DNA of 64,000 bases, from contig JAZROY010000003.1 of NCBI GenBank assembly GCA_045648925.1, positions 57,082 through 121,081 of the forward strand, read 5' to 3'. This document shows, one piece after another, positions 5,735 to 61,624 of this stretch; positions within the stretch are counted from its first letter, which is position 1; every line of letters begins with the position of its first letter. Below the pieces are notes generated by a model that saw nothing but the letters and a program-made list of their open reading frames with translations, made no database searches and was not told the origin of the DNA. This DNA is from Candidatus Enterousia sp. GTDB lineage: Bacteria > Pseudomonadota > Alphaproteobacteria > Rs-D84. Made by a program: the position numbers and the translations under genes.

Positions 5735-7315
5735 TTATTCTTTTCTATCTGGATAAAGCCCTTCAATCAAATTCTTGCGAACTTCGTGATGTTTGATTTT
5801 CTGGGTGCTTGTCATCGGCAAATCTTCCGTTGTCATCGCAAAATGTGTCACCCATTTATATGATGCGACTTTCTTGTTTGCTTCTGCCACAGCGGCTGCT
5901 AATTTTTCCATTGTCATATTCGGTTCCACTTGGAACACACCGTATGCAACGGTTTTATCACCAACCTTGTGTTCAAAGACCGCGACATTTTTTACACCAG
6001 GAATTTCCATAAACAATGCTTCCAATTCATCAGGATAAACATTTTTACCAGAATCCAAAACAATCACTTGTTTTTTACGACCGGCAAAATGTAGTTCGCC
6101 ATTTTTATCCATATACATCATATCCCCAGTATTAAAGAAACCTTTTTCATCAAATACTGTCGCATTAACTTCGTCATTATTAAGATAACCGTTAAACACC
6201 TGATGTCCACGAACCCATAAAATTCCAACACCATTTTCATCTTTATCACGAATTTCACATTCATTATTAGATGTTGGCGCACCAACAGAATAAGGCAATC
6301 TTTTACTTGTCGGTTTGGAAATACAGATTGGTCCCACGGTTTCGGTTAAACCATATCCTTGGATAAATGCAAGACCAAGTGATTCATAAAAATTTTCCAC
6401 TTCTGGCTTGGTTGCTGCGCCACCGGCAATCAGTAATCTTACACGACCACCGAATATATCCAACAATGGTTCTTGGACTTTGCGCACAACAAAATCAAGT
6501 CCCATATCTTTTAATGTCTTTTGATTATTCAAAATGAACGAAGCAACGCGCCATTTTTTTTGTTGTTTCATACCATCAATAATCTTGTTACGGAACAATT
6601 CCAAGACACGCGGAACAACAGGGATAACATGCGGTCTGAATTTCTTGAAATCATCCAAAATGTATTTTGGATTAACGACCGGTTGCAAAACCAAACCACC
6701 ACCATAATGAATTGTCCCGAGTATACATACCGCGAATCCAAAGATATGATAAAGTGGTAAAAAACCATACATAATTTCCCCAGAATGATAATAATCAGAC
6801 ATATCTTCCAAAGAATTTGCACACTCTATTAAATTAAAGTGTGTCAATGGGACAACCTTTGGTGTTCCGGTAGACCCTGATGTAAATGACATAGTCGCAA
6901 TATCTGTTGATTCCGATGGATACGCCCTAAGGTCATAATCTATATCCCCATCTTTGCGTGTAATATCATAAAATTTAAACTTATCTGTTTTATAAAAGAA
7001 CGACGGTTCCGCACAAACAAATTTACAACCTGCGATTTCACACATCTTATCATATTCACGTGGTGTTAAATTTGTATCCAGCATCAACACAGTTGCGCCC
7101 AAATACCACACTGCAAAAAGTGTCAATGGAAACTGTGGCAAATTATGTGACAAAACACCAACAACATCTCCATTTTTTATACCCGCTTTGTTCAAAGAAG
7201 ATGCGCGTGCACGCACTTGATTCAAGAATTCAGAATATGTGATATTTTCACGAACCAAGAACAAATTTTCAGGCCATTGATTCACCGCATTTTCTAACTT
7301 TTGATACATATTCAT
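5735..7315 (-). CDS. AMP-dependent synthetase/ligase (long-chain fatty-acid--CoA ligase-like), paralog 1
   Basis: 526 aa; adenylate-forming motifs TSGSTGTPKVVPLTH, QGYGLTETVGP, TGDmmymdknGelhfaGRKKqvIvldsGkNVYPdElE. Confidence 0.8.
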   Translation of the reverse strand: MNMYQKLENAVNQWPENLFLVRENITYSEFLNQVRARASSLNKAGIKNGDVVGVLSHNLPQFPLTLFAVWYLGATVLMLDTNLTPREYDKMCEIAGCKFVCAEPSFFYKTDKFKFYDITRKDGDIDYDLRAYPSESTDIATMSFTSGSTGTPKVVPLTHFNLIECANSLEDMSDYYHSGEIMYGFLPLYHIFGFAVCILGTIHYGGGLVLQPVVNPKYILDDFKKFRPHVIPVVPRVLELFRNKIIDGMKQQKKWRVASFILNNQKTLKDMGLDFVVRKVQEPLLDIFGGRVRLLIAGGAATKPEVENFYESLGLAFIQGYGLTETVGPICISKPTSKRLPYSVGAPTSNNECEIRDKDENGVGILWVRGHQVFNGYLNNDEVNATVFDEKGFFNTGDMMYMDKNGELHFAGRKKQVIVLDSGKNVYPDELEALFMEIPGVKNVAVFEHKVGDKTVAYGVFQVEPNMTMEKLAAAVAEANKKVASYKWVTHFAMTTEDLPMTSTQKIKHHEVRKNLIEGLYPDRKE

Positions 7316-7370
7316 TTTATACCCCTTTTTATTATCCGGTTATGTCCCCATGTTGTGGGGACACAACAGA

Positions 7371-8951
7371 TTATTCGTGTCTATCTGGATATTTACCTTC
7401 TATTAACCATTGACGCACAACATGATGTTTAATCTTTTGTGTACTTGTCACTGGCAAATCATCAGTTGTCATCGCAAAGTGCGTCACCCATTTATATGAC
7501 GCGACTTTTTTATTAGTTGCAGCCACCGCAGCAGCCAATTTTTCCATTGTCATATCTGGCTCAACAGAAAACACACCGTATGCAACTGTCTTGCCATTTA
7601 TTTCATGTTCAAATACAGCCACACTTTTTACACCTGGTATTTCAATGAACAAACCTTCCAGTTCATCAGGATAGACATTTTTACCAGAATCTAAAACGAT
7701 TACTTGTTTTTTACGACCTGCAAAATGTAGTTCGCCATTTTTATCCATAGACACTAAATCGCCAGTGCAAAAGAACCCTTCTTTATCGAATGCTTCTTTG
7801 TTTGCTTCTTCATTATTTAAATAACCATTTAAAACCTGGTTACCGCGAACCCAAAGCATACCAATACCAGATTCATCTTTATTACGAATTTGAATTTCTG
7901 TGTCACCCATCGGCGCCCCAAAAGCATATGGAACACGTTTTTTTAGTGGCTTTGAACAACAGATTGGTCCAACAGTTTCTGTCATACCATAACCTTGAAC
8001 AAAAGCCATTCCCAGTTGCGTATAGAACTTTTCTACTTCTGGTTTTGTAGCCGCACCACCAGCAACCAAAAGACGTGCACGACCACCAAAAACAGAACGA
8101 ATCTGATTTAATACTTTATCAACCAGTTTGCCTAATCCAATCATACGCAAGAACTTTTGGTTATTCATAATGAAAGATACCAGACCCCATTTTTTCTTTT
8201 GCTTGATACCTTCGATAATTTTTTTGCGGAATATTTCCCACAACTTTGGCACCGCAGGTATAACCTGAGGTTTATATTGCGCAAAATCTGCCATAATTGC
8301 ATTAGGATTAATTGTCGATTGTAATAATATTCCCATACCAAAATGAAGTGGTGCCAAGAATCCAACAGCAAAGCCAAACACATGGTAAAGTGGCAAAAAC
8401 GCATAGAACATTTCACCTGGCTTTAACCATTGATTCAGATATTCCAAATTATCAGAACACGAAACCAAATTAAAGTGTGTTAACGGCACAATTTTTGGTG
8501 TTCCTGTTGAACCAGATGTAAATGATAATGTGGCAATATCTTTATCTTTTAATTGATACGGTTTCAAAGATTCATCTTTTTCTTTATCTTTGGTTTGGAT
8601 ATCAAAAAATTTAAATGCTTTGTTATCGTAAAAGAAAGATTTTTCAGCACACACCAATTTACAATTTGTTAAAAGTGTCATATTGTTATATTCCGCAGAT
8701 GTTAAATTTGTGTCCAACAGCAACACAGTCCCGCCCAAATACCAAATTGCAAAAAGTGTTATTGGAAATTCTGGCAAATTATGTGAAAGCAGCCCAACAA
8801 CATCACCAGGTTTTACCCCTGCTTTTTTTAAACTTGTTGCACGCGCTTTTATCAATTCAGGCATTTGTTCAAATGTCACATTTTCACGGACCAAAAATAC
8901 AGTTTTTGGATTTCTTTTTACATTTTTTTCAAGTAATTCATACATATTCAT
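7371..8951 (-). CDS. AMP-dependent synthetase/ligase (long-chain fatty-acid--CoA ligase-like), paralog 2
   Basis: Same motif set as paralog 1; start placed at MNMYELLEK (8951) by alignment with paralog starts MNMYQKLE / MNMYHFLE; ORF-track start 8960 is 3 codons upstream. Confidence 0.8.
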   Translation of the reverse strand: MNMYELLEKNVKRNPKTVFLVRENVTFEQMPELIKARATSLKKAGVKPGDVVGLLSHNLPEFPITLFAIWYLGGTVLLLDTNLTSAEYNNMTLLTNCKLVCAEKSFFYDNKAFKFFDIQTKDKEKDESLKPYQLKDKDIATLSFTSGSTGTPKIVPLTHFNLVSCSDNLEYLNQWLKPGEMFYAFLPLYHVFGFAVGFLAPLHFGMGILLQSTINPNAIMADFAQYKPQVIPAVPKLWEIFRKKIIEGIKQKKKWGLVSFIMNNQKFLRMIGLGKLVDKVLNQIRSVFGGRARLLVAGGAATKPEVEKFYTQLGMAFVQGYGMTETVGPICCSKPLKKRVPYAFGAPMGDTEIQIRNKDESGIGMLWVRGNQVLNGYLNNEEANKEAFDKEGFFCTGDLVSMDKNGELHFAGRKKQVIVLDSGKNVYPDELEGLFIEIPGVKSVAVFEHEINGKTVAYGVFSVEPDMTMEKLAAAVAATNKKVASYKWVTHFAMTTDDLPVTSTQKIKHHVVRQWLIEGKYPDRHE

Positions 8952-8980
8952 TTTTATCACCTTTTCTTAACTTTTAATAA

Positions 8981-10561
8981 TTATTCATGTCTGTTCGTAT
9001 ATTTACCATCTATTAAATTCTGACGAACAATATGATGTTTAACTTTCTGGGTACTGGTCATCGGCAAATCTTCGGTTGTCATCGCAAAGTGTGTAACCCA
9101 TTTATAAGATGCAAGTTTCTTATTAGCACTCGCAACTTCTTTTGCCAGTTTTTCCATTGTCATATTGTCTTCAACAGAAAACACACCATAAGTGACTGTT
9201 TTACCCTTGACCTTGTGTTCGAACACAGCGACATTTTTGACACCTGGAATTTCCATAAACAATGCTTCCAGTTCATCAGGATAAACATTTTTACCAGAAT
9301 CCAAAACAATCACTTGTTTTTTACGACCAGCAAAATGGTATTGATTATTTTTATCCAAATATACCAAATCGCCCGTATTAAACCAGCCATCTTTATCAAA
9401 CAGTTCTTTGTTCGCGACATCATTATTCAAATAACCACGGAATATATTTGGACCACGAACCCATAACGTGCCAATACCTTTGTCATTGACATCCCTGATT
9501 GTACATTCAGAACATCCGATTGGTGTTCCAAACGCAAACGGCACGCGATGTTTCACTGGTCTTGAACAACAAAACGGTCCGACTGTTTCGGTTAAACCAT
9601 AGCCCTGAATAAAAGCCACCCCAAGCGATTCATAGAAACTTTCCACTTCTGGCTTAGTCGCAGCACCACCAGCAATCATTAAACTGACACGACCACCAAA
9701 GATATCAAGTATTGGTTTTTGTACCCGATGCACCAACCAACCCAAACCGATATGTTTCAAAGTTTTTTGGTGTTTCAACACAAATGATACAAACCACCAC
9801 ATGTGTTTTGCTTTGATACCTTCGATAATTTTGTTACGAAAAACCTCCCAAAGACGGGGAACCGCGGGGATACAGTGCGGTTTATAGTTTTTAAAATCAT
9901 CCAAAATATTTTTTGGATTTATTGTCGGCTGTAATAAAATTCCCATATGAAAATGCATAGGTGCCAAAATACCAGCCGCAAAACCAAAGACATGGTAAAG
10001 CGGTAAAAAACCATACATTATTTCATTTTTGTGAATCCATTGCCCCATTTCCGCATAACAATCAGACGATGTCTTTAAATTACCATGCGTTAACGGAACA
10101 ACCTTTGGGTTGCCTGTTGAACCAGATGTAAAAGACATTGTAGCGATATCATCACTTGATGTTTTTGCGGGTTTAATTTTTGTATCTGCTTTGGTATCTT
10201 TGGTTTCTATATCAAAGAATTTAAAATTCTTGGTCTTATAGAAGAAAGATTTTTCTGCACATACAAACTTGCACCCAACTATCTTGGTCATATTATCGTA
10301 TTCAAACGGGGTTAAATTTGTGTCCAACAACAACACAGTCCCGCCCAAATACCAAATTGCGAAAAGAGTCACAGGAAATTCTGGAATATTATGCGCCAAT
10401 AAACCAACAACATCGCCAGGTTTGACACCGGCATTATACAAAGTAGTCGCCCGCGCATGGATTAGTTTCAGAACATCTTTGAATGTGATTTTTTCGCGTA
10501 CCAAATACAAAGCATTTGGCGATTCTTGCGCCACCTGCTCTAAAAAATGATACATGTTCAT
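8981..10561 (-). CDS. AMP-dependent synthetase/ligase (long-chain fatty-acid--CoA ligase-like), paralog 3
   Basis: 526 aa; TSGSTGNPKVVPLTH, QGYGLTETVGP; C-terminal 60 aa nearly identical to paralogs 1 and 2. Confidence 0.8.
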   Translation of the reverse strand: MNMYHFLEQVAQESPNALYLVREKITFKDVLKLIHARATTLYNAGVKPGDVVGLLAHNIPEFPVTLFAIWYLGGTVLLLDTNLTPFEYDNMTKIVGCKFVCAEKSFFYKTKNFKFFDIETKDTKADTKIKPAKTSSDDIATMSFTSGSTGNPKVVPLTHGNLKTSSDCYAEMGQWIHKNEIMYGFLPLYHVFGFAAGILAPMHFHMGILLQPTINPKNILDDFKNYKPHCIPAVPRLWEVFRNKIIEGIKAKHMWWFVSFVLKHQKTLKHIGLGWLVHRVQKPILDIFGGRVSLMIAGGAATKPEVESFYESLGVAFIQGYGLTETVGPFCCSRPVKHRVPFAFGTPIGCSECTIRDVNDKGIGTLWVRGPNIFRGYLNNDVANKELFDKDGWFNTGDLVYLDKNNQYHFAGRKKQVIVLDSGKNVYPDELEALFMEIPGVKNVAVFEHKVKGKTVTYGVFSVEDNMTMEKLAKEVASANKKLASYKWVTHFAMTTEDLPMTSTQKVKHHIVRQNLIDGKYTNRHE

Positions 10562-21538: not shown

Positions 21539-22873
21539 TTACTGATTCAAAAAATCCCGCAATTCATCGCCAGACAACCGCTTTGTCTTTTGTGTTTGCG
21601 TTGCATCTATGATTGAAATAAGACGCGGCGACATAAACACAACTAATTCAGCAAATGGCGATATCAAAGTTTCTGGTGTTGTCACAAAAGAATGTGTCGG
21701 GATACCAATAATGACATAATTATCACCCACACTGGATGGAATTGTGAACGAAGATAATTCCCCATTACTTGTTGATAGAACTATTTTTGCATCAATTTTT
21801 TTAGAATCACCAAAATCACCATAAGTTCCAGTTGCACCAATAATTAAATCTGTTTCCAATCTGTCTTCTTTGCTACATTGACCGATATCAAACCTGGTCT
21901 GCCAACCATTTGGAACCGCGAAAGTCCCTTGGGAAATCAAGACCATACTGGCCTGGCTTGATATAAATTCTTGCAATGTTTTTGTGTTTATTTCTGGACT
22001 AACGACCAGCGCACGACCAACTACACCTGGGATAGACATATGTATATTATTTTCCCCGAACGCAGGTAACATATTCATCCAAATAATCGGATTATCTGTT
22101 TTTGGATACACACGATAAACATCAACATCCCACGCCAACACATACTTTTTTGATGCAACATCCGCTATAATCTTAGACACTTCGCGTTCTGTTTGATAAT
22201 CGCCTTCAAAAATAACCGTTTTATCAGTCCAATTTATCAACAAATTATGAATACCAACCCCACGCATAGCATCAATCATAGCCATTATCATCGTTTCATT
22301 TTTCGGCATTTTTATCAGCCATTTTCCATTTGACTTTAAATGAATTTCACCGAATTCACCATCATAAGTATAATAAACATGTCCTATTTTAGTTATCAAT
22401 TCCACAGCATCAGACAAAGAACTTGTGGAAATTGAGCCAGATATTTTTTCCAACGCAACCTGGTCTTCAACAATGCTTATATCTGTATCAAGCAACAATT
22501 TTTCCAGTACTTCTTTGACCGGCATCTTTTTAAAATCATAATCCGACACCTTTAAATCAGGCAATTTATCACCGGTATTAAGACGGATAATTTCTATTTT
22601 TTCTTCTGGGATAACAGAAACAATATTTTGATTATCCCAATTTACCAAACATCTTTTTGGTAAATCAAGCGCAAAATGTTGCGCAGTATCTGTGGTCAAA
22701 GCCGCTTTTTTAGGGAAAATCGGAACAGAATTTTCATCAATTACAACATTTTCCACAACATCTATTGTGTCATAAAGGTCTTCTTCGGTATATTGACGCT
22801 TGGCACACCCGGTCAACATAATACCAGCGCACAAACATACAAACACCAGTTTTTTTACTTTATTACATATCAT
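21539..22873 (-). CDS. Outer-membrane lipoprotein, possibly secretin-like (T2SS/type IVb pilus secretin family) - tentative
   Basis: 444 aa; lipobox MLTGC; C-terminal region VIIGIPTHSFVTTPETLISPFAELVVFMSPRLI resembles the secretin C-domain consensus (..IP.LG..F...eLvifitPrii). Type IVb secretins (BfpB, PilN, TcpC) are lipoproteins. Confidence 0.3.
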   Translation of the reverse strand: MICNKVKKLVFVCLCAGIMLTGCAKRQYTEEDLYDTIDVVENVVIDENSVPIFPKKAALTTDTAQHFALDLPKRCLVNWDNQNIVSVIPEEKIEIIRLNTGDKLPDLKVSDYDFKKMPVKEVLEKLLLDTDISIVEDQVALEKISGSISTSSLSDAVELITKIGHVYYTYDGEFGEIHLKSNGKWLIKMPKNETMIMAMIDAMRGVGIHNLLINWTDKTVIFEGDYQTEREVSKIIADVASKKYVLAWDVDVYRVYPKTDNPIIWMNMLPAFGENNIHMSIPGVVGRALVVSPEINTKTLQEFISSQASMVLISQGTFAVPNGWQTRFDIGQCSKEDRLETDLIIGATGTYGDFGDSKKIDAKIVLSTSNGELSSFTIPSSVGDNYVIIGIPTHSFVTTPETLISPFAELVVFMSPRLISIIDATQTQKTKRLSGDELRDFLNQ

Positions 22874-22898
22874 TTTCCGTCCTTTTTTATTCCTTATA

Positions 22899-23222
22899 CT
22901 ATATATTCATAATTTTTTCAAATTCTTCCAAAGTCATTTCATATATAGGTTTTTGATTTGGAGTCACCAAATTTTTAACACTTTCAAATTGTTTTTCGAA
23001 CAAATTCATCACTGATGCGACATCAGGTTCTATTTTTGCCCCCGCTTTTTTTAACCTGTTTCCATATTCTACTATGTATTCCAATACATCTGCAGCAAAA
23101 AATCGACCAACATAATTTTCCAACGCAATTCCACCTTTTTCAACACAAATAGCAGACAAAACCTTTGCCATTTCGTTATAAAAGTTAGCTAATTTGATAT
23201 AATTTTGAACTGATATAGCCAT
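22899..23222 (-). CDS. Hypothetical protein
   Basis: ORF with internal start MAISVQNY at 23222; no recognisable domain. Confidence 0.3.
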   Translation of the reverse strand: MAISVQNYIKLANFYNEMAKVLSAICVEKGGIALENYVGRFFAADVLEYIVEYGNRLKKAGAKIEPDVASVMNLFEKQFESVKNLVTPNQKPIYEMTLEEFEKIMNI

Positions 23223-23295
23223 TATTTTTTCCCATCCTTTTTTTACATTATAAAAACTATTGCCACACAAACGCAATTAAATTATAATATAAAAT

Positions 23296-23676
23296 ATGAA
23301 AATGAAATATTTATTTTTTCTGCTTGGTCTGACAGCGTGTGCTTCTGCCAATCGTGGCTCGATTGATGACGCCACTATTTTGAACTGGGAAAACGATGCT
23401 GTGACAACCGAACAATTCGTTCGCGACCATAAATCATGCCTTGGAATAAAAGAGACCAGTTATACCCCCCGTTCCAGGATTGCGAAACTGTTATCCCCGA
23501 ACCAAAGCGCACAAATGCCAGATTGGGACGGTCTTTGGGTAACATTCCAATCTAATGAATACAAAGATGTTGGTCAACGGGCGCTACTTTCTGTCCCAAG
23601 GAATCGCGCTTCAAAAACTGTCGGATATTATCGTAAGTGTATGTTAAGACGCGGTTATTTGCTACGCGCTCAATAA
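23296..23676 (+). CDS. Hypothetical lipoprotein
   Basis: 126 aa; lipobox LLGLTACAS. Confidence 0.4.
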   Translation: MKMKYLFFLLGLTACASANRGSIDDATILNWENDAVTTEQFVRDHKSCLGIKETSYTPRSRIAKLLSPNQSAQMPDWDGLWVTFQSNEYKDVGQRALLSVPRNRASKTVGYYRKCMLRRGYLLRAQ

Positions 23677-23725: not shown

Positions 23726-24412
23726 ATGAAAAAATCCATCTGGTTTTGGTTATGTTTTGTGCTGTCAATTATATTGGCGATTTATTTTGCTGTCCGCGTT
23801 ATAACCAGTCAAATTGGGCGCGGCCCGATATCAACTGTCCAAGGCATTGAAACCTACGGCACAAATACCAAAGACGAAGAAATAATAAAACTTTCGTTGG
23901 GCATTGGTCCGGGAACCAGTTTGCGCGCCATAGATTTACATCAATTAAATTACCGTGTTTCTAATATCCCCGGGGTAAAAAATTCTGCTGTCCGACTTTT
24001 GCCAAATGGGAAAATTATCGTAAAAATCCAAAAACACAAAGTTATCGCCAGTTGGACAGATGGCGCTTATTATTACCCTCTATCGGCAGACGGAACCAAG
24101 ATAAACACACCATCAGAAGCCCGCAATGATAATGCCATTGTATTCCAGGGCGATTTACCAAATAACTTAAAAGATATAATATCGGATGTGTCTTCTATAT
24201 CAAAATACATTGATTATATAAACATGGTGGAATCCAGGCGCTGGAACATACATACAAAAAATGGGACAACTATATATTTGCCAGAAAAAGACCCTGCGGT
24301 TGCAATAAATAAAATCAAGGTATTAAATCAAACACATAAATTATTATCACGAAAACTTGATATTATTGATATGCGCGACAGTGCAAGAATTCTGGTCAAA
24401 GAAAAAAAATGA
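23726..24412 (+). CDS. ftsQ: Cell division protein FtsQ
   Basis: 228 aa; N-terminal TM then POTRA-like region; immediately upstream of, and ATGA-overlapping, the ftsA-like gene (canonical ftsQ-ftsA order). Confidence 0.65.
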   Translation: MKKSIWFWLCFVLSIILAIYFAVRVITSQIGRGPISTVQGIETYGTNTKDEEIIKLSLGIGPGTSLRAIDLHQLNYRVSNIPGVKNSAVRLLPNGKIIVKIQKHKVIASWTDGAYYYPLSADGTKINTPSEARNDNAIVFQGDLPNNLKDIISDVSSISKYIDYINMVESRRWNIHTKNGTTIYLPEKDPAVAINKIKVLNQTHKLLSRKLDIIDMRDSARILVKEKK

Positions 24413-26193
24413 AACTATCTAATTCATCTTTTTTATGCCTTGATATCGGAACATACGGTGTTCGTGGGTTTGCTCATTGTATACGGGATGCAAAAATTAT
24501 TCAATCTGCTATGCATTTTGTAAAAAGTCCAAACACATTATTTGCTTTGAAAAGCGTGGTGGATGAATTGGAACAACAATTAAACACTCACTTTAATTCT
24601 GCATTTATAACTGGTAATTTTGGTGAAATGGATTTTCAAACATTTACAGACATAATAACATGGCGCGAAGAACACAAAATAACTGATCTGGATTTAAAAC
24701 ATCAAATTGGAAAAATAACAAAACCAGATGGATTTTACGCGATGCATATTATACCTGTATTTTACGGGACAGAACATTTACCAAACATAAACAACACACC
24801 GATTGGACAAATTGATACTGAGTTAAAATCTATATTCAGTGTTATTTCTTATGAAGAAGAACAAACAAGGTATATATCTGATATTTTGCGTCGCGCACAT
24901 ATTCAATCTGGTGGATTTTTTGATTCAACATTTTTGCAAAATGCCATATATAAAAAACAAAAAGAAAAAGTATTATTTTTGGACCTTGGCAATGAATTTA
25001 CAACCGTTTCTATATGGACAGCACGTGGTCCTTTGTATATGAATAAAATCAAATTCGGGCAACAAGATATAACCAAGGCAATATCTGATGAATTACAAAT
25101 CAGCAGAAATGATGCTGACACATTAAAAATATCCATCGCCAGTGCAACACCAAATGAAATGGACAGATTTACACCGGCTGATTCTTCTGAAAAATTTGCG
25201 GCTTTTTCTGTTTCAGATATAAATGATGTATTTATACCAAAATTAACAGAATTATTAAATACTGTTATTGAACAATCAGAAAAATATATAAATCAATATA
25301 AACCTGAAAAAATTATTTTGACTGGTGGTGGAACTTCTATCAATAACATAAATACATTTATTGAACGGGCTTTTAATTTACCTGTGGAAAATTTGGGCGA
25401 CAGTGCGACCATAAATGCTTTATCAGAATACATATGGGCATCACATTTGCCAGAAAGAAATGCTTATATACAAAAACAACAAAAATTACAAAATCTGGTT
25501 TATAAAATTGCAAAACTTTTCAAAAGAAAAAAAAGAAACAAAAAGGCAAAATTTATCCCGATTATGCCAAGCACACTTTGCTTTAATATGAATGATATGT
25601 CAACATATACAATGTTTGCATCGGCTGGTATTTCGGCAATACATGTTGATATAATGGACGGCTTTTATGTCGATAATATTGCAGGCAGTATTGAAGAATT
25701 ATCAAACATACGAACAAAGACCAAATCATATTTGCATGTTCATTTAATGACGGAAAGCCCATCAATCTGGGCGCGCGATGCAATAAATGCTGGTGCAGAT
25801 ACAATCATAATTTCTACAAATACATCTGGGGTTCATGATGCTATACACATTATAAAATCCGCTGGAAAAAGATGTGGCATCGCATTAAACCCAGATTCTA
25901 ATATTGAAATATTAAAACCGATACTTACACAAATTGATGAAATAATGGTGATGGGGGTTGAACCTGGTGCAGCGGGTCAAAAATTTGATGAACGCGCAAT
26001 TCAAAAAATAAAAATATTAAATTTTACACGAAAGAAACATGGGTTAAAATATTTAATCAGTGTTGATGGCGGAATAAATCCAGATACCGCAAAATTATGT
26101 TGGGATGCAGGCGCAGATTTATTGGTAAGCGGTTCTTATCTTGCCAAATCCCCCGATTTCCCATTAGCAGTACAAAGTTTATTGAACCGTTAA
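24409..26193 (+). CDS. FtsA-like actin-family cell-division protein fused in-frame to ribulose-phosphate 3-epimerase (Rpe)
   Basis: Residues 1-385: FtsA signatures (CLDIGTYGVRG phosphate-1, LFLDLGNEFTTV phosphate-2, IILTGGGTSINNI adenosine motif, C-terminal amphipathic basic helix LVYKIAKLFKRKKRNKKAKF). Residues 386-594 (ATG at 25564): full Rpe (HVDIMDG, HLM, MGVEPG, VDGGIN). No stop codon between the two. Confidence 0.7.
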   Translation: MKLSNSSFLCLDIGTYGVRGFAHCIRDAKIIQSAMHFVKSPNTLFALKSVVDELEQQLNTHFNSAFITGNFGEMDFQTFTDIITWREEHKITDLDLKHQIGKITKPDGFYAMHIIPVFYGTEHLPNINNTPIGQIDTELKSIFSVISYEEEQTRYISDILRRAHIQSGGFFDSTFLQNAIYKKQKEKVLFLDLGNEFTTVSIWTARGPLYMNKIKFGQQDITKAISDELQISRNDADTLKISIASATPNEMDRFTPADSSEKFAAFSVSDINDVFIPKLTELLNTVIEQSEKYINQYKPEKIILTGGGTSINNINTFIERAFNLPVENLGDSATINALSEYIWASHLPERNAYIQKQQKLQNLVYKIAKLFKRKKRNKKAKFIPIMPSTLCFNMNDMSTYTMFASAGISAIHVDIMDGFYVDNIAGSIEELSNIRTKTKSYLHVHLMTESPSIWARDAINAGADTIIISTNTSGVHDAIHIIKSAGKRCGIALNPDSNIEILKPILTQIDEIMVMGVEPGAAGQKFDERAIQKIKILNFTRKKHGLKYLISVDGGINPDTAKLCWDAGADLLVSGSYLAKSPDFPLAVQSLLNR

Positions 26194-26577
26194 TTTTCTT
26201 CCCAGTCCATTTTGTGTTATATAAATATGTATTGTATTTTTCGGCAGAATATCTTTTGCAACATCGGGCCATTCAATAAGTGTAATATCATTATCAAGCG
26301 CATATTGCAAACCAATTTCTGTTAATTCAGAAGCATCCCCTATTCTGTACAAATCAAAATGTGAAATCCCGTCATAATTTTGAACAAGTGTAAAAGTTGG
26401 AGATGGAACAACAGTATTTTCACCACGCAAAGTTTTAATTATTGTGCGTGCGATTTCTGATTTCCCCATTCCCAAATCACCATGCAAAGCAACAACCACC
26501 GGCGCATGTAAAGTTTTTGCAAAATCGTGCGCCCATGCACGTGTTTCATCTAAATTATTTAAGATATATTCTTTCAT
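26179..26577 (-). CDS. tsaE: tRNA threonylcarbamoyladenosine biosynthesis protein TsaE
   Basis: LHGDLGMGKSEIAR P-loop variant typical of TsaE/YjeE; 132 aa. Confidence 0.8.
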   Translation of the reverse strand: MKEYILNNLDETRAWAHDFAKTLHAPVVVALHGDLGMGKSEIARTIIKTLRGENTVVPSPTFTLVQNYDGISHFDLYRIGDASELTEIGLQYALDNDITLIEWPDVAKDILPKNTIHIYITQNGLGRKLTVQ

Positions 26578-40277: not shown

Positions 40278-41162
<885 letters not shown>

Positions 41163-41226
41163 ATTTTCTCCTTTCTCTATGCCAGCATTATATCATTTTT
41201 TCAGCATGAAAAAAAGTGTTTTTTGT

Positions 41227-42297
41227 TTACATCAACACAGATGTAATTTGTTCTTGCATTTGGAATGTGCCCATAACGACCCAACCAATTATTATGGATA
41301 CAACAATAATACCAATACTGTTCAAAACACTTGATATACTTTCCATTTTTCGGACAGACTCTTCCATATAATCTGTCGCAATTTGATTTACATTTTTCGC
41401 AAAATCATTCATATCAGAATAAATTATTAAATCGCCGATAATTTCTTGGCTTGGGAAATCTTTACCAGTTGCCGCCAGCGCATTACCTAAATTTTCACCG
41501 TTTGAAATATAGTGTAATGCTTCTTCTAAAATATCAGACAAATAACGATTGGAATAATCTGCCAATAAACGCATCGCATCTGGCACAGACACCCCGGCAG
41601 ATACCATTGCTGATAAAGACATCAACCAACTGACCGACAATTGTAATTTATAAGTATTCCATGGTGGCAATTTATCAAACCATGTTCGCAATTTTCCAGT
41701 CCATACTGGCAACGATGCCCATATTAAAACAACCAATATAACAAAACCCCCGGCCAAAATATGCCAATATTTCCCAGCCATCTCTGATACCCAGACCAAT
41801 GATGCTGCACTGCCACGCCAAACAACTGTTGAACCAGCTGCCTCGGTCAATGGTGGCACCAGATACAACCCAACCATTATTACTATGGCAATTGTCAAAA
41901 CAAATAAAAACAATGGATAAGTAATCGCAGACCACATAGCACGCTTAATACGATTTATTCCGCCAACTATGCGTCCAATATTTTCCAAAGACACCAATAA
42001 ACTTGAAACACTGCCCGAAGTTAATAACAAAGTTTCTTCACGCGGAACCCAATCATAAGTTGCCTGGGCAAAAGTCATACCGCGTTCCAAATTTTGTTGA
42101 ATATCACGCATCGCTATCGCAAAGGGTTCATTTGGTTTCTGACCATTTTGCGATTCTATCATTTCTATTCTGTTCAACGCATCCATCAAAGTGAAATTAT
42201 TTCGCAATAATGACGCCACCTTGCGCGAAATAGCCATGCGCTTTTCAGTATCTGTTTTAAAAATTAATTTTGCATAAAGCAATTCTAACTTATTCAT
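41227..42297 (-). CDS. Type II secretion/type IV pilus platform protein, GspF family (BfpE/TcpE/PilR-R64-like)
   Basis: 356 aa polytopic membrane protein with a GspF-like domain; follows the ATPase gene as in bfpD-bfpE / pilQ-pilR. Confidence 0.6.
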   Translation of the reverse strand: MNKLELLYAKLIFKTDTEKRMAISRKVASLLRNNFTLMDALNRIEMIESQNGQKPNEPFAIAMRDIQQNLERGMTFAQATYDWVPREETLLLTSGSVSSLLVSLENIGRIVGGINRIKRAMWSAITYPLFLFVLTIAIVIMVGLYLVPPLTEAAGSTVVWRGSAASLVWVSEMAGKYWHILAGGFVILVVLIWASLPVWTGKLRTWFDKLPPWNTYKLQLSVSWLMSLSAMVSAGVSVPDAMRLLADYSNRYLSDILEEALHYISNGENLGNALAATGKDFPSQEIIGDLIIYSDMNDFAKNVNQIATDYMEESVRKMESISSVLNSIGIIVVSIIIGWVVMGTFQMQEQITSVLM

Positions 42298-42301
42298 GAT
42301 T

Positions 42302-43927
42302 TTAATACACCCATGGTCTGTCTAACATGCCAACCCAACGTTCCAGTTCATCTACACCGATAATTCCACGCAACATCAATTCTTCTGCAGCTTCTTTTAA
42401 TGTTCGCCCGTTCATTTTTTCCAGCCAATATTTTAATGCGTTTTCCGTTTCACCACTTAATGCCAGATTTAAAAATTCGCTATTTGTCATAATAATTTCA
42501 CCGGCCTTGATACGACCAATAGTCCCAGTTCCATTACAGTATTCACACCCAACACCACGAACATAAACCTGATTTAATCCTAATTCACCAAATGCATCTT
42601 TGACACGATTATACGCAGGGTGTTCACGTTTTTCAGATAATTTTTCACGACAATGTGGGCACAATTTTTTAAACAAACGCATGGAAACAAGACCGCGTAT
42701 CATTGTTTCATCTTTTAATTTAAATGCCTCTACACCCATATCCAGTAAACGCGTCAATGCACCCATTGCAGAATTTGCGTGTAAAGTAGTCCAAACATTA
42801 TGTCCAGAAAGCGCGCCTTTGACCGTTAACTGTGCCGCAGATAATGTTCTTATTTCACCGACCATCAATGTGTCAGGGTCGCTGCGCAATGCCGCCGCCA
42901 ACGCTTCTGTGAATTTTTCTTCGCGTTGTTCTTCGTTAATCGCGTTAACCACAGGAATTTGATGTGCACCGAAAATCTTTTGTTCCGCAGGATCTTCCAC
43001 AGTAATAAGATTTATTTCGTATCTTCTTTCTTTTAACATCAACGCCATATTATGAACCAAAGTCGTAGATTTACCAGATGATGTAGGCCCAGCCACAATT
43101 ACCAACCCTGTTGGCGCAGAACGAAGACGCATCAATAATTTTTGTTCGTATTCATTAAATTCTTGTTCTAATTTAACACCTTCGCTTGGGTTATCATAAA
43201 GAAGACGCATAACAACATATTGCGAACCAAACGCAATAGGATTAAATTGCATTCTTATACCCAAAACACCCGCAGGTAAATATAAATCTTTGGTTCCGCG
43301 CAATGGTGTTCGTCCGTCTTTTTGCGCAGTTTGATATTCGTTTTGCGCATAACTGGAATTAGAAATATCTGCAGATGCAAAAGCCGCCCGAACAAAAGAT
43401 TCGCCCCATTGTGAATTATATTCCAACACCGGTTGCATACTGCCATCAATACGAAAATAAATTGTTGTCTGGTCTGCAACTTCGATATGAACATCAGAAA
43501 CCTTTTGTGCCGCAGCACGAGCAATTATATCGACAAAATCTTTTTGCATTTGGTTGTCGTAATCCACACGCGAACGATTACCAAACCCCAATCTTTCATC
43601 ACTTGTTTTATATATATTTGAAATCAAACCCAAATCAGAATAATAAGGTTCCTTGACCGCAAGATTTTTTTGTTGCAACAAATCAAGAAAAGCCAAAACG
43701 CGACCATCATATTGATGTGTTCGCGATATAACAATTTCACCACCAGAAAAATATGCAATTAAATTCTGGGTATCTTTTGGTAAAGCCAATTCACCAGCAT
43801 ATGCCGTCAACAATCGATTATTATTGGAAAATAAATAATCCAGTATTTCTTTGCTGTTAGCTTTTTCTAAACTAACTGGAACAGACAATTCTTTAACATT
43901 TGCAAAATTATTATCTGTATATTGCAT
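42302..43927 (-). CDS. Type IV pilus/T2SS assembly ATPase, GspE family (BfpD/TcpT/PilQ-R64-like)
   Basis: 541 aa; Walker A VIVAGPTSSGKSTTL, Asp box, His box, C-terminal tetracysteine CPHC...CEYC zinc motif. Confidence 0.8.
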   Translation of the reverse strand: MQYTDNNFANVKELSVPVSLEKANSKEILDYLFSNNNRLLTAYAGELALPKDTQNLIAYFSGGEIVISRTHQYDGRVLAFLDLLQQKNLAVKEPYYSDLGLISNIYKTSDERLGFGNRSRVDYDNQMQKDFVDIIARAAAQKVSDVHIEVADQTTIYFRIDGSMQPVLEYNSQWGESFVRAAFASADISNSSYAQNEYQTAQKDGRTPLRGTKDLYLPAGVLGIRMQFNPIAFGSQYVVMRLLYDNPSEGVKLEQEFNEYEQKLLMRLRSAPTGLVIVAGPTSSGKSTTLVHNMALMLKERRYEINLITVEDPAEQKIFGAHQIPVVNAINEEQREEKFTEALAAALRSDPDTLMVGEIRTLSAAQLTVKGALSGHNVWTTLHANSAMGALTRLLDMGVEAFKLKDETMIRGLVSMRLFKKLCPHCREKLSEKREHPAYNRVKDAFGELGLNQVYVRGVGCEYCNGTGTIGRIKAGEIIMTNSEFLNLALSGETENALKYWLEKMNGRTLKEAAEELMLRGIIGVDELERWVGMLDRPWVY

Positions 43928-43931
43928 ATCT

Positions 43932-44630
43932 TTATTTTCCGATATTTAAACTTTCTTCTATACCATCTTTTTCAAGAATGATGCCATCATTCAAAGATAT
44001 AGATTTTACGATATATCCATCTAAATCTTTACCCACAGCGATGCGTTTATTTTGACCCGTAGATAATTCCTGAATAGTTGCCTGCAATTGGTTATCCATA
44101 CCAACAATATTTATCAATTTATATCTTTTGCTGAAATTACCATCCTCCTTTTTTGGGGTTGTTTTTTTGACAACAACCTCATCAATTTCTTCATCCAAAG
44201 CATATCTTTGTTGCTTTAATTTTTCAGTTTGGATTTCCAATTGAGTTTTCGCAGTTTCCAATTCATGTTGTTGTTGTTCTGCACGTCCAGACAAAGTATC
44301 CAATTCCATTTGTAATTTGATTCTTTCTGCATTTAATCTGTCCAAATCTAAATCAAGTTGTGCGCGTTCTTTTTCCAGTTGTGCGACAACTTTTTCTTGT
44401 TCCAACATTGTAATTTTTTCAAACAAAGAACCGGTCATATCATAATCTTGCAATGCCTGAACAGACATTTCATCCGCCAATTCAGAATCATTTTGCTGAT
44501 TATCATAATCATCATATTCAATAAAATCGTCCATAAAAACTTCTTCGGACCAACCAGAAGAAATATGAAGCCCCAAAGCTATCATACATGCAACAACTAT
44601 AATATTTAATTTTTTAAACATGTTTTCCAC
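43932..44630 (-). CDS. Periplasmic coiled-coil pilus-assembly protein (PilP/BfpU-like, tentative)
   Basis: 232 aa; signal peptide, acidic stretch, long coiled coil, C-terminal beta-domain (KRIAVGKDLDGYIVKSISLNDGIILEKDG). Confidence 0.35.
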   Translation of the reverse strand: MENMFKKLNIIVVACMIALGLHISSGWSEEVFMDDFIEYDDYDNQQNDSELADEMSVQALQDYDMTGSLFEKITMLEQEKVVAQLEKERAQLDLDLDRLNAERIKLQMELDTLSGRAEQQQHELETAKTQLEIQTEKLKQQRYALDEEIDEVVVKKTTPKKEDGNFSKRYKLINIVGMDNQLQATIQELSTGQNKRIAVGKDLDGYIVKSISLNDGIILEKDGIEESLNIGK

Positions 44631-44632
44631 CT

Positions 44633-45883
44633 TTATTTAGAATAAATTACTACTTCGTAATTCCAAACCTTTGTATTTGCACGCCATGTCACAGACGGCA
44701 TATATACACCATCAAATTCATCGAAAGCCCGCATAAATTCCGGCGGTATCAATTTCGAAGAAACCCCTACTTCGGTCACATAGATATTTTCTGTATCTCC
44801 CCCATTTGAAACTCTGTCTATGACGCCTTGGATATTTGCGTTGATATTAGATTGTTGAAAAATAGTTGTCACATCACGCATCAAAGTTGTTTGATCGCGT
44901 TCATCAATCGAAGAATAAGTTTTTAATGCGGGCAACTTTACACGAACAATGATTTCATCATCGGACATTTGTTGCACCATCGCCCCAGGCATTAAATCAC
45001 CACCAATATCATAAAAATCATTTAATGTGCCAAAATCACGCGAAAAATTAGCCGACACATATTCTTCATCACATCTAGCATAGGTTTGATTCCAACCCAT
45101 CACAGGTTGCATTACAAAAGCAATTGCACGATAACACAATTCTGCGCGTTCTTTGACATTTGGTAAATGATTATATGCGTAATCAACACTTTGTTCTGTG
45201 ATGACTGGCATTATTTTTTCAGTCATCTTTTGTGTTTTTTCTTCTATTTGCTTTTTGTATTCTGCGATTTTTTCTGCGTTTATCGTTGGTTTGTTTGCAT
45301 TTTGATTTATCACAGAATTTTTTAATACAACATATCCAAATATCGCGAACAAAATTAAAAACACAATTGTTGGTATCATTGATTTTACAGTGCTTATCTC
45401 ATGTAATTTTACATTTGCACCCTGACCCATTAAATCAGACAACTGTTTTTCTTGGGATTTTGGTATCCCCCAACTTGCAGGTGCGAATAAAGCACCCCAA
45501 TCTGGGATTTCAACCATTTGCATAAATAATTTCCTGGCACTTTGGGCATCAGTAAGCAAAATATCGCGAATAATAACACCATTACGCACAGCGATTAAAT
45601 AATAATTGTTGTTATCTGCCTGGAAAACCCCCAAAAAAGAAACCAAATCTGACAATGCACTGACTATCTCTATTGCGGCACTTGGCATACCAGCATTTGC
45701 GCCTTCGCGCGTATCGGTTAAACCGACCATAGATTTATATCCAACATAAAGTGTATATTTTTTATCGCCATTTTTTGCCAACTGTTTCGCATAATTTTGC
45801 GCAGTATTACCAACCCGCAGGGGCTGCCAAAACAGACCTGTTGCGTATTTTTTATGATTAACGGTTATTACTTGTTTTATCAA
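44633..45883 (-). CDS. Bitopic inner-membrane pilus biogenesis protein (BfpC / R64 PilO-like, tentative)
   Basis: 416 aa; ~170-aa cytoplasmic domain, one TM (IPTIVFLILFAIFGYVVL), ~225-aa periplasmic domain; position and size match bfpC/pilO upstream of the ATPase. Confidence 0.4.
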   Translation of the reverse strand: MIKQVITVNHKKYATGLFWQPLRVGNTAQNYAKQLAKNGDKKYTLYVGYKSMVGLTDTREGANAGMPSAAIEIVSALSDLVSFLGVFQADNNNYYLIAVRNGVIIRDILLTDAQSARKLFMQMVEIPDWGALFAPASWGIPKSQEKQLSDLMGQGANVKLHEISTVKSMIPTIVFLILFAIFGYVVLKNSVINQNANKPTINAEKIAEYKKQIEEKTQKMTEKIMPVITEQSVDYAYNHLPNVKERAELCYRAIAFVMQPVMGWNQTYARCDEEYVSANFSRDFGTLNDFYDIGGDLMPGAMVQQMSDDEIIVRVKLPALKTYSSIDERDQTTLMRDVTTIFQQSNINANIQGVIDRVSNGGDTENIYVTEVGVSSKLIPPEFMRAFDEFDGVYMPSVTWRANTKVWNYEVVIYSK

Positions 45884-50385: not shown

Positions 50386-51387
50386 TTAAACATCCAATTT
50401 ATTTTGATAATTCCAAGAATCACGACACATATCATCCAAAGAATATTCTGCAACCCATCCCAATACGCGTTTCGCTTTTTCTGGATTGGCATAGCACATC
50501 GCGACATCGCCGGGTCGCCGCGCTATAATTTCATACGGGATTTTTATCTTATTTACTTTTTCAAAGGTTTTTATTACATCCAATACAGAATATCCATGCC
50601 CTGTTCCCAGATTAAATATTTCCAAACCACACTTTTTATCAATCGCGAACATTGCGCACACATGCCCACGCGCCAAATCAACCACATGGATATAATCCCT
50701 GACGCCTGTGCCATCAGGTGTATCATAATCATTGCCATATACAAACAATTTTTCACGTTTTCCACACGCAACTTGGGTAATATAAGGCATCAAATTATTT
50801 GGGATACCGTTCGGGTTTTCACCAATCAAACCTGATGGATGTGCGCCAACAGGGTTAAAATAACGCAAAATAACAACATTCATATCTGGGTTTGCTTTTT
50901 GCATATCCACCAAAATTTGTTCTATCATATGTTTGGTCCAACCATATGGATTTGTACATATACCTTTTGGGCATTCTTCGGTAATCGGCACAAATGCAGG
51001 TATTCCATAAACAGTTGCACTGGACGAAAAAATAATATTTTTGCATCCTATTTCATTTAAAACATTTAACAAAGATATTGTCCCAGAAATGTTATTATCG
51101 TAATATTCAACAGGTTTAACCACAGATTCTCCGACAGCCTTTAACCCAGCAAAATGAATACAAGCGTCAATTTTGTACCCAGACAAGAAATTTTTTAATA
51201 CATCTTTATCGCGGATATCGATATTTGAAAATTCTATTTTTTTACCTGTAATTTTTTGAATATTATCCAAAACATTAATTGATGAATTACATAAATTATC
51301 TATACCAACGATATCAAAACCATTATTTTGCAATTCAACAATTGTATGCGAAGCAATAAATCCTGTGGCACCTGTTACTAGAATCAT
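50386..51387 (-). CDS. galE: UDP-glucose 4-epimerase
   Basis: 333 aa; MILVTGATGFIASH Rossmann motif, YxxxK, GalE-like throughout. Confidence 0.85.
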   Translation of the reverse strand: MILVTGATGFIASHTIVELQNNGFDIVGIDNLCNSSINVLDNIQKITGKKIEFSNIDIRDKDVLKNFLSGYKIDACIHFAGLKAVGESVVKPVEYYDNNISGTISLLNVLNEIGCKNIIFSSSATVYGIPAFVPITEECPKGICTNPYGWTKHMIEQILVDMQKANPDMNVVILRYFNPVGAHPSGLIGENPNGIPNNLMPYITQVACGKREKLFVYGNDYDTPDGTGVRDYIHVVDLARGHVCAMFAIDKKCGLEIFNLGTGHGYSVLDVIKTFEKVNKIKIPYEIIARRPGDVAMCYANPEKAKRVLGWVAEYSLDDMCRDSWNYQNKLDV

Positions 51388-51484
51388 TTTTTACCTTTTT
51401 ACTTGTCTTTCATCCTATTTTTGATTCAGCAGTAATTATCCATATCTATATCATACAAATCTATAACTATGTGGCCCAATAAAA

Positions 51485-51763
51485 TCAATCTAATCTGGTA
51501 AATTCTACATAAGTATATTCAGTATCATTTGTCATATCTGGTATTTTTGTTTTATCAAGACCGGACCAATCGACCCACTTTCCGCTTGATTCCAGAGCTT
51601 TTACATTCTGCACCCATTCTAAATCCGAAGGACATTTATAAACAATATGTGTAGATGTTTTTGCTATTCTTTCGCAATCGGTCATTGTGTTTTCTATATT
51701 TTTGCTATCATTATAACATCCGCCCAACACAAGAACAGGTAATATTAACAATAGAAATTTCAT
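51485..51763 (-). CDS. Small hypothetical lipoprotein
   Basis: 92 aa; lipobox VLGGCYN. Confidence 0.4.
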   Translation of the reverse strand: MKFLLLILPVLVLGGCYNDSKNIENTMTDCERIAKTSTHIVYKCPSDLEWVQNVKALESSGKWVDWSGLDKTKIPDMTNDTEYTYVEFTRLD

Positions 51764-51945
51764 AAAAACCCCTTTCGCTTATACTGGTAAGTATACTTTA
51801 AAATTTGTTTTTTCGCAATATGTATTTAACATGGGTCTATTAAATTCCGCATAAATTTTACATTCGATTACAAAAACATTCAAATTGGCATACAGCAAGT
51901 ATACATAATCAAAATCCTAAACCAAGGAATTTGATTATGTATTTT

Positions 51946-55845: not shown

Positions 55846-55846
55846 T

Positions 55847-57013: not shown

Positions 57014-57195
57014 AACACAACCCCATCATTTACTATTTTTAATTTGTCTGATTTTATCTTTTAACCTGTGGTATTTATTGTGAACTTTTATTGGATATTT
57101 AAAAAATCTTAAATCACAAATATGTCTTATAAAATGCATGTTTGTTTCCTTTGTCTTATTTTCAGATTTTTTCATGCTTTAAACATTATTATGGG

Positions 57196-57224
57196 AATTT
57201 TAGCAATAAAAAATAAATAATGCA
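57196..57224 (-). promoter_or_regulatory. Candidate sigma70-type promoter (TTGCAT-17-TAAAAT) for the glf / multidomain GT operon
   Basis: Minus strand ttgcat (57224-57219), 17-nt spacer, taaaat (57201-57196), within a 317-bp AT-rich intergenic region upstream of glf. Confidence 0.35.
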
Positions 57225-57330
57225 AGCCGGCCGCAAAAACTATTTAACAATGAAAATTAAAGGTTTATACCGGGTTTATTCATACAATCAGTGTAATAAT
57301 TTGAACATAAAATACATATAAATTTTACAA

Positions 57331-59293: not shown

Positions 59294-59301
59294 TACCTTT
59301 A

Positions 59302-60351: not shown

Positions 60352-60368
60352 ATCCTACCTTTTTATTA

Positions 60369-61616: not shown

Positions 61617-61624
61617 ATCAATAC

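Follow-up and report, generated by a model that had tools for sequence, protein, structure and literature searches.

The gene directly downstream of ftsQ in a 64,000-nucleotide stretch of Candidatus Enterousia sp. DNA (contig JAZROY010000003.1, positions 57,082 to 121,081 of the forward strand; called the window below) raises the question of whether the cell-division protein FtsA and the pentose-phosphate enzyme ribulose-phosphate 3-epimerase (Rpe) are joined in one polypeptide. An initial annotation of this DNA had proposed either such a fusion or a lost stop codon, with rpe translated from an internal start codon. Comparison with related sequences indicates that the fusion is old, extends through a bacterial order and is not a sequencing error. 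We consider it probable that the gene specifies a single membrane-tethered bifunctional protein, in which an FtsA orthologue is linked to Rpe by a predicted internal tether that is amphipathic and polybasic. Both domain families are well known, and the novelty lies in their combination.

The FtsA-Rpe open reading frame

A six-frame list of open reading frames (ORFs) and the raw sequence reveal a single ORF of 594 codons plus TAA on the forward strand (24409-26193), without an internal stop codon or frameshift. Its ATG overlaps the TGA of ftsQ by 4 nucleotides (ATGA, 24409-24412), an arrangement that suggests translational coupling of the two genes. The claim that a complete FtsA-like protein and a complete Rpe share one frame is thus borne out by the uninterrupted ORF and by the Pfam domains found in both parts. 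The phosphate-1, phosphate-2 and adenosine motifs and the HVDIMDG and VDGGIN motifs, all of which had been pointed out previously, are located in the 594-amino-acid product, and the ATG noted at 25564 is codon 386.

An AlphaFold2 model of the fusion, for which 20 diverse family members were the input, has a mean predicted local distance difference test score (pLDDT) of 90.5 and a predicted template modelling score (pTM) of 0.62. It comprises an alpha/beta domain up to approximately residue 345, a helix assigned by DSSP to residues 347-372, a low-confidence segment at residues 372-379 with pLDDT below 50, and a beta/alpha barrel from residue 385. The features of the locus are as follows, with the evidence for each in parentheses.

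23726-24412, forward strand: ftsQ, 228 amino acids (Pfam FtsQ_DivIB_C, 4.7e-10).
24409-26193, forward strand: the whole FtsA-linker-Rpe fusion ORF (ORF, Pfam, NCBIfam, full-length homologues, AlphaFold2 model).
24409-25443, forward strand: FtsA-type actin-fold domain, residues 1-345 (Foldseek, phmmer, TIGR01174).
25444-25524, forward strand: long predicted helix, residues 346-372, whose C-terminal half is amphipathic, residues 358-373 (25480-25527, QKLQNLVYKIAKLFKR) (DSSP, hydrophobic moment).
25525-25554, forward strand: polybasic tether, predicted to be disordered, residues 373-382, RKKRNKKAKF (pLDDT, charge).
25555-26190, forward strand: Rpe (beta/alpha)8 barrel, residues 383-594 (PF00834, NF004076 and 2FLI matches).
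25564-25566, forward strand: internal ATG, Met386, not conserved as a start (codon comparison among relatives).
26179-26577, reverse strand: tsaE, convergent, overlapping the last 15 nucleotides of the fusion ORF (Pfam TsaE, 2.8e-32).

Distribution and age of the fusion

A search of 5.8 billion protein clusters produced 786 matches, the best 120 of which were characterised. These 120 clusters (72-100% identity) are all full-length and contain both Pfam domains; 118 of them are 594 amino acids long, and the other two are 586 and 601. Their source assemblies come from ENA, Logan, JGI and NCBI, and include contigs of up to 532 kb. When one genome per GTDB species was scanned, 14 species were found to carry the full-length fusion, with 78-94% identity in metagenome-assembled genomes (MAGs) from rumen, yak and horse, and 47-57% identity in Candidatus Enterousia MAGs. 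HMMER, run exhaustively over 1.84 billion representatives at 50% identity, yields approximately 19 clusters of 542-623 amino acids that span both domains at 29-77% identity, below which the matches fall to ordinary Rpe proteins of ~215 amino acids at ~130 bits. Carriers belong to Candidatus Enterousia and the order Rs-D84, and some distant ones are labelled "Rickettsiales bacterium" or "Alphaproteobacteria bacterium". One carrier contig, JBKSMS010000010, is from MAG 82_22-119, which has been assigned to the Alphaproteobacteria, order Rs-D84, genus Enterousia, and has a genome of 0.89 Mb (PMC12306168).

An error of sequencing or assembly, or a very recent loss of a stop codon, would mean that ftsA and rpe are truly separate genes, and relatives with a stop at codons 380-386 would then be expected. 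The comparison came out the opposite way: every relative examined has the fusion, and the junction is intact at the DNA level in 16 independently assembled relatives. The sole apparent split is cluster P0131, an Rpe-only gene call of 209 amino acids that begins at Met386 and lies beside a 306-amino-acid FtsA call. However, its source (ENA ERZ28653428 scaffold_84937) has an N-filled gap with duplicated flanks at ~2590-2980, inside the FtsA part, which produced the false "FtsA" and "Rpe" calls and hence the misleading Rpe-only cluster; the junction region of this scaffold reads through in frame. An intact fusion is seen in no fewer than 120 clusters, in 14 species genomes and in lineages down to ~30% identity, all from independent assemblies. 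Together with selection across the junction, described next, these comparative data refute the artefact explanation, and we give it practically no chance of being correct.

Ratios of nonsynonymous to synonymous substitution rates (dN/dS) were calculated by the Nei-Gojobori method between the window and close relatives, for which dS is ~0.4-1.8, so that some pairs are near saturation. They are 0.05-0.12 for the FtsA part (codons 1-345), 0.07-0.31 for the linker (codons 346-382) and 0.02-0.13 for the Rpe part (codons 383-594), which has the lowest values of the three. Purifying selection therefore acts on all three parts, including the junction, where dN/dS is well below 1. The age of the fusion (~30% identity) and this selection are at odds with the idea that a lost stop codon left rpe to be translated from its internal ATG.

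The initial annotation had considered such a fusion unprecedented. In the sense of the literature this stands, since full-text searching for an FtsA-epimerase fusion, or for Rs-D84 together with FtsZ, returned nothing relevant, and the papers found on Enterousia or Rs-D84 (including PMC12306168) make no mention of FtsA, FtsZ or a fusion. In the sense of sequence it does not, because hundreds of such fusions are already in public databases. In records that bear a name, the full-length proteins appear as "ribulose-phosphate 3-epimerase", with one listed as "hypothetical protein", and automated reconstructions of Rs-D84 or Enterousia may consequently miss ftsA. The fusion also provides a clean, synapomorphy-like marker for this uncultured clade.

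The FtsA-type domain

The Pfam FtsA model (PF14450) matches residues 191-327 with 45.5 bits (cutoff 31.8), and the NCBIfam ftsA model TIGR01174 matches residues 47-342 with 76.3 bits, under its equivalog cutoff of 175.85. PRK09472 gives 23 bits, under its cutoff of 409. The phosphate-1 motif is LDIGT (D12, G14 and T15), the phosphate-2 motif is LDLGNEFT (D192, G194 and T198), and the adenosine motif is GGG (G306-G308). These nucleotide motifs are invariant among Enterousia-level relatives and are kept in most of the 20 diverse members; they are degenerate in P0136, P0142, P0144 and P0146.

The closest known folds and sequences are FtsA. In a Foldseek search of the PDB, ranks 1-18 are all FtsA structures (including 7q6i, 1e4g, 4a2a, 3wt0 and 7q6d), from V. 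maritimus, X. poinarii, E. coli, T. maritima and S. aureus. These alignments cover 349-388 columns, their template modelling (TM) scores are 0.69-0.75 when normalised to the target, and Rpe structures come next in the ranking. FtsA is also the best phmmer match among PDB sequences (residues 47-344 against 61-373), and PilM is far weaker. The HMMER alignment to 7Q6G is unbroken across the 1C region (residues 47-146 against 61-161), and the fold match and this alignment point to an SHS2/1C-type insert at approximately residues 70-150. The nearest unfused relatives of the domain are bona fide FtsA proteins, at 27-28% identity. One of them (P0293, 27% identity) is encoded in a classical ftsW-murG-murC-murB-ddl-ftsQ-ftsA-ftsZ cluster.

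Could the domain instead be another protein with the acetate and sugar kinase, Hsc70 and actin (ASKHA) fold, for example a pilus protein of the PilM kind, or a sugar kinase working with Rpe, and have no role in division? There are weak Pfam matches to PilM_2 and MreB_Mbl, a gene set resembling type II secretion and type IV pilus systems is located 15-20 kb away in the same window, the FtsA score is under the equivalog cutoff, and a fusion of kinase and epimerase would be metabolically sensible. Against this, no FGGY, ROK or hexokinase family matches at E <= 0.01, the top sequence and structure matches are all FtsA, and the domain continues into an FtsA-like amphipathic helix. Moreover, an overlap between the gene and ftsQ is seen in all lineages examined, and the less derived family member P0132, which matches Pfam SHS2_FTSA as well as FtsA, comes after ftsI-ftsQ. 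On the profile, fold and synteny evidence we reject both the PilM and the sugar-kinase candidates, and an identity other than FtsA is very unlikely.

The linker

The helix that had been interpreted as the amphipathic membrane-targeting helix of FtsA, ...KIAKLFKRKKRNKKAKF, is present, and no other segment of the protein has as high a hydrophobic moment; it is internal and not C-terminal. Calculated over 14 residues, the moment reaches its maximum of 0.77 at residues 360-373, and the corresponding value is 0.62 for the membrane-targeting helix of E. coli FtsA. This helix also ranks first within its own protein in five of nine relatives (set A1). The linker carries a net charge of +12 in this protein, and for most family members the value lies between +6 and +12. 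Approximately 12 residues separate the amphipathic helix from strand beta-1 of the barrel, which begins 2-3 residues past the basic tether. Judging from these properties, the FtsA membrane-targeting helix appears to have been kept and to serve now as a linker.

Runs of A occur in the lysine-rich linker (25519-25535), with an A8 run at ~25523-25530 and runs of A6-A8 in relatives. A reading of the raw sequence suggests that each of the two shifted frames meets a stop 17-19 codons past the A8 run. Transcriptional slippage on these runs could in principle give an FtsA-only isoform that ends just past the amphipathic helix.

The epimerase domain

Residues 387-578 match Pfam Ribul_P_3_epim (PF00834) with 152.5 bits (cutoff 21.1). 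The NCBIfam rpe model NF004076 gives 186.3 bits, over its cutoff of 165, and the TIGR01163 equivalog model gives 163.1 bits, under 212.6. HVDIMDG corresponds to residues 412-418 and VDGGIN to residues 552-557. The Streptococcus pyogenes Rpe structure 2FLI is matched by phmmer (E = 1.3e-36) and by Foldseek (TM score 0.92, root-mean-square deviation (rmsd) 1.5 Å over 211 columns), and the barrel of the model has pLDDT mostly above 85. Residues H412, D414, D417, H445 and M447, the D553-G-G sequence, PGAAGQ and GS fall on conserved motif positions in the alignment to 2FLI; these positions comprise the metal-ligand and acid-base residues (His, Asp, His and Asp) and the phosphate-binding loops of Rpe. 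The fused Rpe is predicted to be an active epimerase that would convert ribulose 5-phosphate (Ru5P) to xylulose 5-phosphate (Xu5P).

All key Rpe residues are kept in 18 of the 20 diverse members, and relatives at the Enterousia level keep them without exception. The two remaining members, in which metal ligands, the catalytic Asp and the phosphate loops of Rpe are affected, still have a full-length fusion: P0136 has H412Y, D414T and D553C, and P0139 has H412N, H445N and a deletion of the PGxxGQ loop. P0136 is 589 amino acids long and is found on many long contigs with a window-like gene order (loci L020 and L021, 10001-11770). Conversely, the phosphate-1 Asp of the FtsA domain is missing from P0142, P0144 and P0146, all of which keep the Rpe residues. 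Among the 20 diverse members the architecture is therefore better conserved than either active site, which would be compatible with a structural role for the barrel. P0136 additionally lacks the FtsA nucleotide-binding motifs, and could be a doubly "dead" scaffold protein.

A related explanation is that the barrel mainly serves the divisome protein, structurally or as a regulator, and is not, or not solely, a housekeeping enzyme. It would oligomerise FtsA at the membrane or sense pentose phosphates, and so link carbon status to division. This explanation draws on the persistence of full-length fusions in P0136 and P0139 after loss of catalytic or ligand residues, in P0136 with the same synteny, and on the finding that solved Rpe structures are multi-chain entries (12 chains in 2FLI and 6 in 1TQJ). 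Metabolic enzymes that regulate FtsZ are known, namely UgtP of B. subtilis, OpgH of E. coli, and KidO and GdhZ of Caulobacter. However, the invariance of key catalytic residues in nearly all members and the low dN/dS of the Rpe part are as for an active enzyme, and the degenerate P0136 and P0139 may come from fast-evolving genomes with a decaying domain. A mainly structural barrel, which would be compatible with a bifunctional fusion, therefore seems fairly unlikely.

An internal start and separate products

The ORF might nevertheless yield two proteins, a free Rpe and/or a free FtsA that ends in its membrane helix, through initiation near codon 386, proteolysis of the tether or slippage on A-runs. 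An ATG is present at codon 386 in 13 of the 16 sequences with a locatable junction motif. Residues 372-379, predicted to be disordered and very basic, make a plausible protease site, and the linker has A-runs of 6-8 in all close relatives. Reduced, AT-rich genomes are known to show transcriptional slippage on poly(A).

The other observations do not favour this explanation. The remaining three of the 16 sequences (L010, L012 and L016) have TTA, a leucine codon that does not act as a start, at position 386, so that the initial proposal of an rpe start at the ATG fails in three species. The AAAGG suggested there as an internal ribosome-binding site ends 17 nucleotides upstream of the ATG, whereas AAGG-type motifs are found 3-12 nucleotides before the start in 18 of 48 window genes, mostly at 6-10 nucleotides; it is part of Lys and Ala codons and is not conserved among relatives. 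There is no Shine-Dalgarno-like motif at a spacing of 6-10 nucleotides, nor a promoter-like site at the junction, and promoter-like sequences across the region are no more frequent than expected by chance. The TTA codons, the misplaced and unconserved AAAGG and the lack of a junction promoter rule out a conserved internal start or ribosome-binding site, and a conserved, separately initiated rpe is not supported. The A-runs, for their part, follow from AAA and AAG lysine codons in a genome of 35% G+C, and their positions are not conserved. Finally, a stop codon would be expected to have reappeared at least once in so old a family if only separate products mattered, and none is seen. We thus regard two separate products as unlikely.

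Gene neighbourhood and the lack of a nearby ftsZ

In all six loci with gene tables (L001, L002, L018, L020, L021 and L022), which represent five divergent lineages, ftsQ lies directly upstream of the fusion gene. The gene order lolD-lolC-(444 amino acids, no Pfam match)-(~107 amino acids)-(126-amino-acid lipoprotein)-ftsQ-fusion is maintained in lineages of no more than 30-33% identity. Downstream in the window are tsaE and uvrB, both convergent. The tsaE neighbour, common to L001 and L020, fills the slot where ftsZ normally follows ftsA.

The description of the locus as a truncated division and cell wall (dcw) cluster without downstream ftsZ agrees with our results for the window and 23 related loci. 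No ftsZ was found in the window, either by tblastn with an E. coli FtsZ query or by a scan for the tubulin signature GGGTG[ST]G; none was found by tblastn in the 23 related loci (305 kb in total), and none is listed among the Pfam-annotated genes of L026 and L027, which cover 10 kb past the left end of the window. Of the mur, ddl and ftsW genes, too, Pfam annotation detects none in the window, such that ftsQ and ftsA alone survive there as a remnant of the dcw cluster. An intermediate stage, in which unfused ftsA and rpe are neighbours, was sought among the nearest unfused FtsA relatives (27-28% identity) and did not turn up there: their ftsA genes adjoin ftsZ or unrelated genes, not rpe.

The ORFs without Pfam matches between lolC/lolD and ftsQ encode a 444-amino-acid lipoprotein-like protein (21539-22873, reverse strand), a protein of 108-125 amino acids (reverse strand) and a 126-amino-acid lipoprotein-like protein (23296-23676, forward strand). 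This block (21539-23676) is also present in L001, L018 and L020, and its synteny suggests a conserved envelope or division-related module. At the other side of the fusion gene, the overlap with tsaE (26179-26193) lacks a terminator-like structure, which is typical of a tightly packed reduced genome.

A proposed origin and function

We propose that the fusion had one origin, in the ancestor of the reduced-genome gut Alphaproteobacteria of the order Rs-D84 (Candidatus Enterousia and relatives). In this scenario, rpe would have landed where ftsZ normally follows ftsA, the ftsA stop codon and spacer would then have been lost, and selection would have retained the fusion since. The ftsQ and fusion genes would be translationally coupled through their ATGA overlap. 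The FtsA domain is predicted to bind a nucleotide and to sit at the inner face of the membrane by means of the amphipathic, polybasic linker, which would hold the Rpe barrel within ~12 residues of the membrane surface. Because known Rpe proteins are dimers or hexamers, it is also probable that FtsA protomers become cross-linked through the fused barrel. The Enterousia group is described as fermentative and possibly partner-dependent bacteria of farm-animal guts, in which glycolysis is incomplete and the non-oxidative pentose-phosphate pathway lacks transaldolase (PMC12306168). The barrel would interconvert Ru5P and Xu5P for this retained, incomplete pathway.

Several observations weigh against a membrane-tethered bifunctional protein. 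The FtsA part is divergent, as seen in its low TIGR01174 score (76 bits against 175.85) and its 17-19% identity to solved FtsA structures. The pTM of 0.62 leaves the relative orientation of the FtsA and Rpe domains in the model unfixed. P0137, P0140 and P0141 have basic linkers of only 17-20 residues without an amphipathic helix, and tethering to the membrane through the linker is therefore not universal. Given the losses of Rpe residues in P0136 and P0139, and of the phosphate-1 Asp in P0142, P0144 and P0146, the retention of both activities also fails family-wide. Cleavage in the predicted disordered basic tether, or another route to separate products, may occur as well.

It is conceivable, if doubtful, that the fusion forms a hard-wired link between carbon metabolism and cytokinesis. 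The membrane-held barrel would then multimerise FtsA, or would alter FtsA polymerisation or its binding to FtsZ or the divisome according to pentose-phosphate occupancy, and might replace regulators lost from partner-dependent genomes of less than 1 Mb, with ftsZ relocated or conceivably absent. Retention of the architecture despite loss of Rpe residues would, in such a system, reflect a structural role.

FtsA is the conserved protein that anchors the Z-ring to the membrane, and it is generally considered to end with its C-terminal helix; an order-level gut lineage has long carried a 23-kDa metabolic enzyme right behind this helix. If both halves of the fusion work, FtsA can accommodate a membrane anchor in its interior as well as a large C-terminal cargo that is probably oligomeric, and a pentose-phosphate enzyme would operate at the membrane or the site of division. 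Should the enzyme domain modulate FtsA, the fusion would provide, in covalent form, a counterpart to the metabolic control that UgtP, OpgH, KidO and GdhZ exert on division.

Other genes in the window

Three tandem paralogous genes for AMP-binding proteins resembling acyl-CoA synthetases (526, 529 and 526 amino acids) are located at 5735-10561 on the reverse strand. Their copy number varies, with three in L026 and one in L027, and two copies are near the fusion in the distant L022 lineage. A 1299-amino-acid protein with three family-2 glycosyltransferase domains is encoded at 51946-55845 on the reverse strand, within a polysaccharide cluster (50386-62635) that also includes UDP-galactopyranose mutase, GDP-mannose 4,6-dehydratase-like proteins, members of glycosyltransferase families 8 and 4 (GT8 and GT4) and a Stealth-family protein. 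At 40278-45883 (reverse strand), a set resembling type II secretion or type IV pilus genes (T2SSF, T2SSE ATPase and a PilO-like protein) lies among ORFs without Pfam matches, in a genome of ~0.9 Mb. Type IV pili have been reported for the UBA9783 lineage only (PMC12306168).

Comparison with known systems

Canonical FtsA proteins of E. coli, Vibrio maritimus and Thermotoga maritima (7Q6D, 7Q6F, 1E4G and 4A2A) resemble the N-terminal part of the fusion in their actin/ASKHA fold with an SHS2/1C insert, in their phosphate-1, phosphate-2 and adenosine motifs, in the position of the gene directly 3' of ftsQ, and in an amphipathic helix that follows the core, the hydrophobic moment in the fusion being similar to that of the membrane-targeting sequence. 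They differ in sequence, since the FtsA part of the fusion is only 17-19% identical to them and is below the TIGR01174 cutoff, and in size, the canonical core having ~385 residues and that of the fusion ~345. The canonical helix ends the protein, whereas the helix of the fusion is internal, with a polybasic stretch and then an enzyme domain of 212 residues behind it. Also, canonical ftsA precedes ftsZ, but the fusion gene does not, and mur, ddl and ftsW are not adjacent to it.

The Rpe structures from Streptococcus pyogenes (2FLI), potato chloroplast (1RPX) and Synechocystis (1TQJ) share with the fused domain the (beta/alpha)8 barrel (TM score 0.92, rmsd 1.5 Å, 33% identity) and the aligned HxD...D (HxDxxD), HLM, PGxxGQ, DGG and GS motifs. 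Unlike a stand-alone Rpe, the fused barrel has no N-terminus of its own, and it scores below the TIGR01163 equivalog cutoff yet above the NF004076 subfamily cutoff.

The moonlighting division regulators UgtP, OpgH, KidO and GdhZ are similar to the fusion in that an enzyme of central metabolism is physically at the early divisome. However, they bind FtsZ non-covalently and in a regulated manner, whereas Rpe is here covalently fused to FtsA.

The fusion may also be compared with the gene fusions of reduced genomes ("Rosetta stone" proteins), as it occurs in genomes of less than 1 Mb (Rs-D84; PMC12306168). In reduced genomes, intergenic regions and stop codons are often lost and neighbouring genes merge, and gene fusion there can be selectively near-neutral. 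Rosetta stone fusions usually unite members of one pathway or complex, but FtsA and Rpe have no known functional link. The FtsA-Rpe fusion is, moreover, not sporadic, and has been kept over a deep divergence, to ~30% identity.

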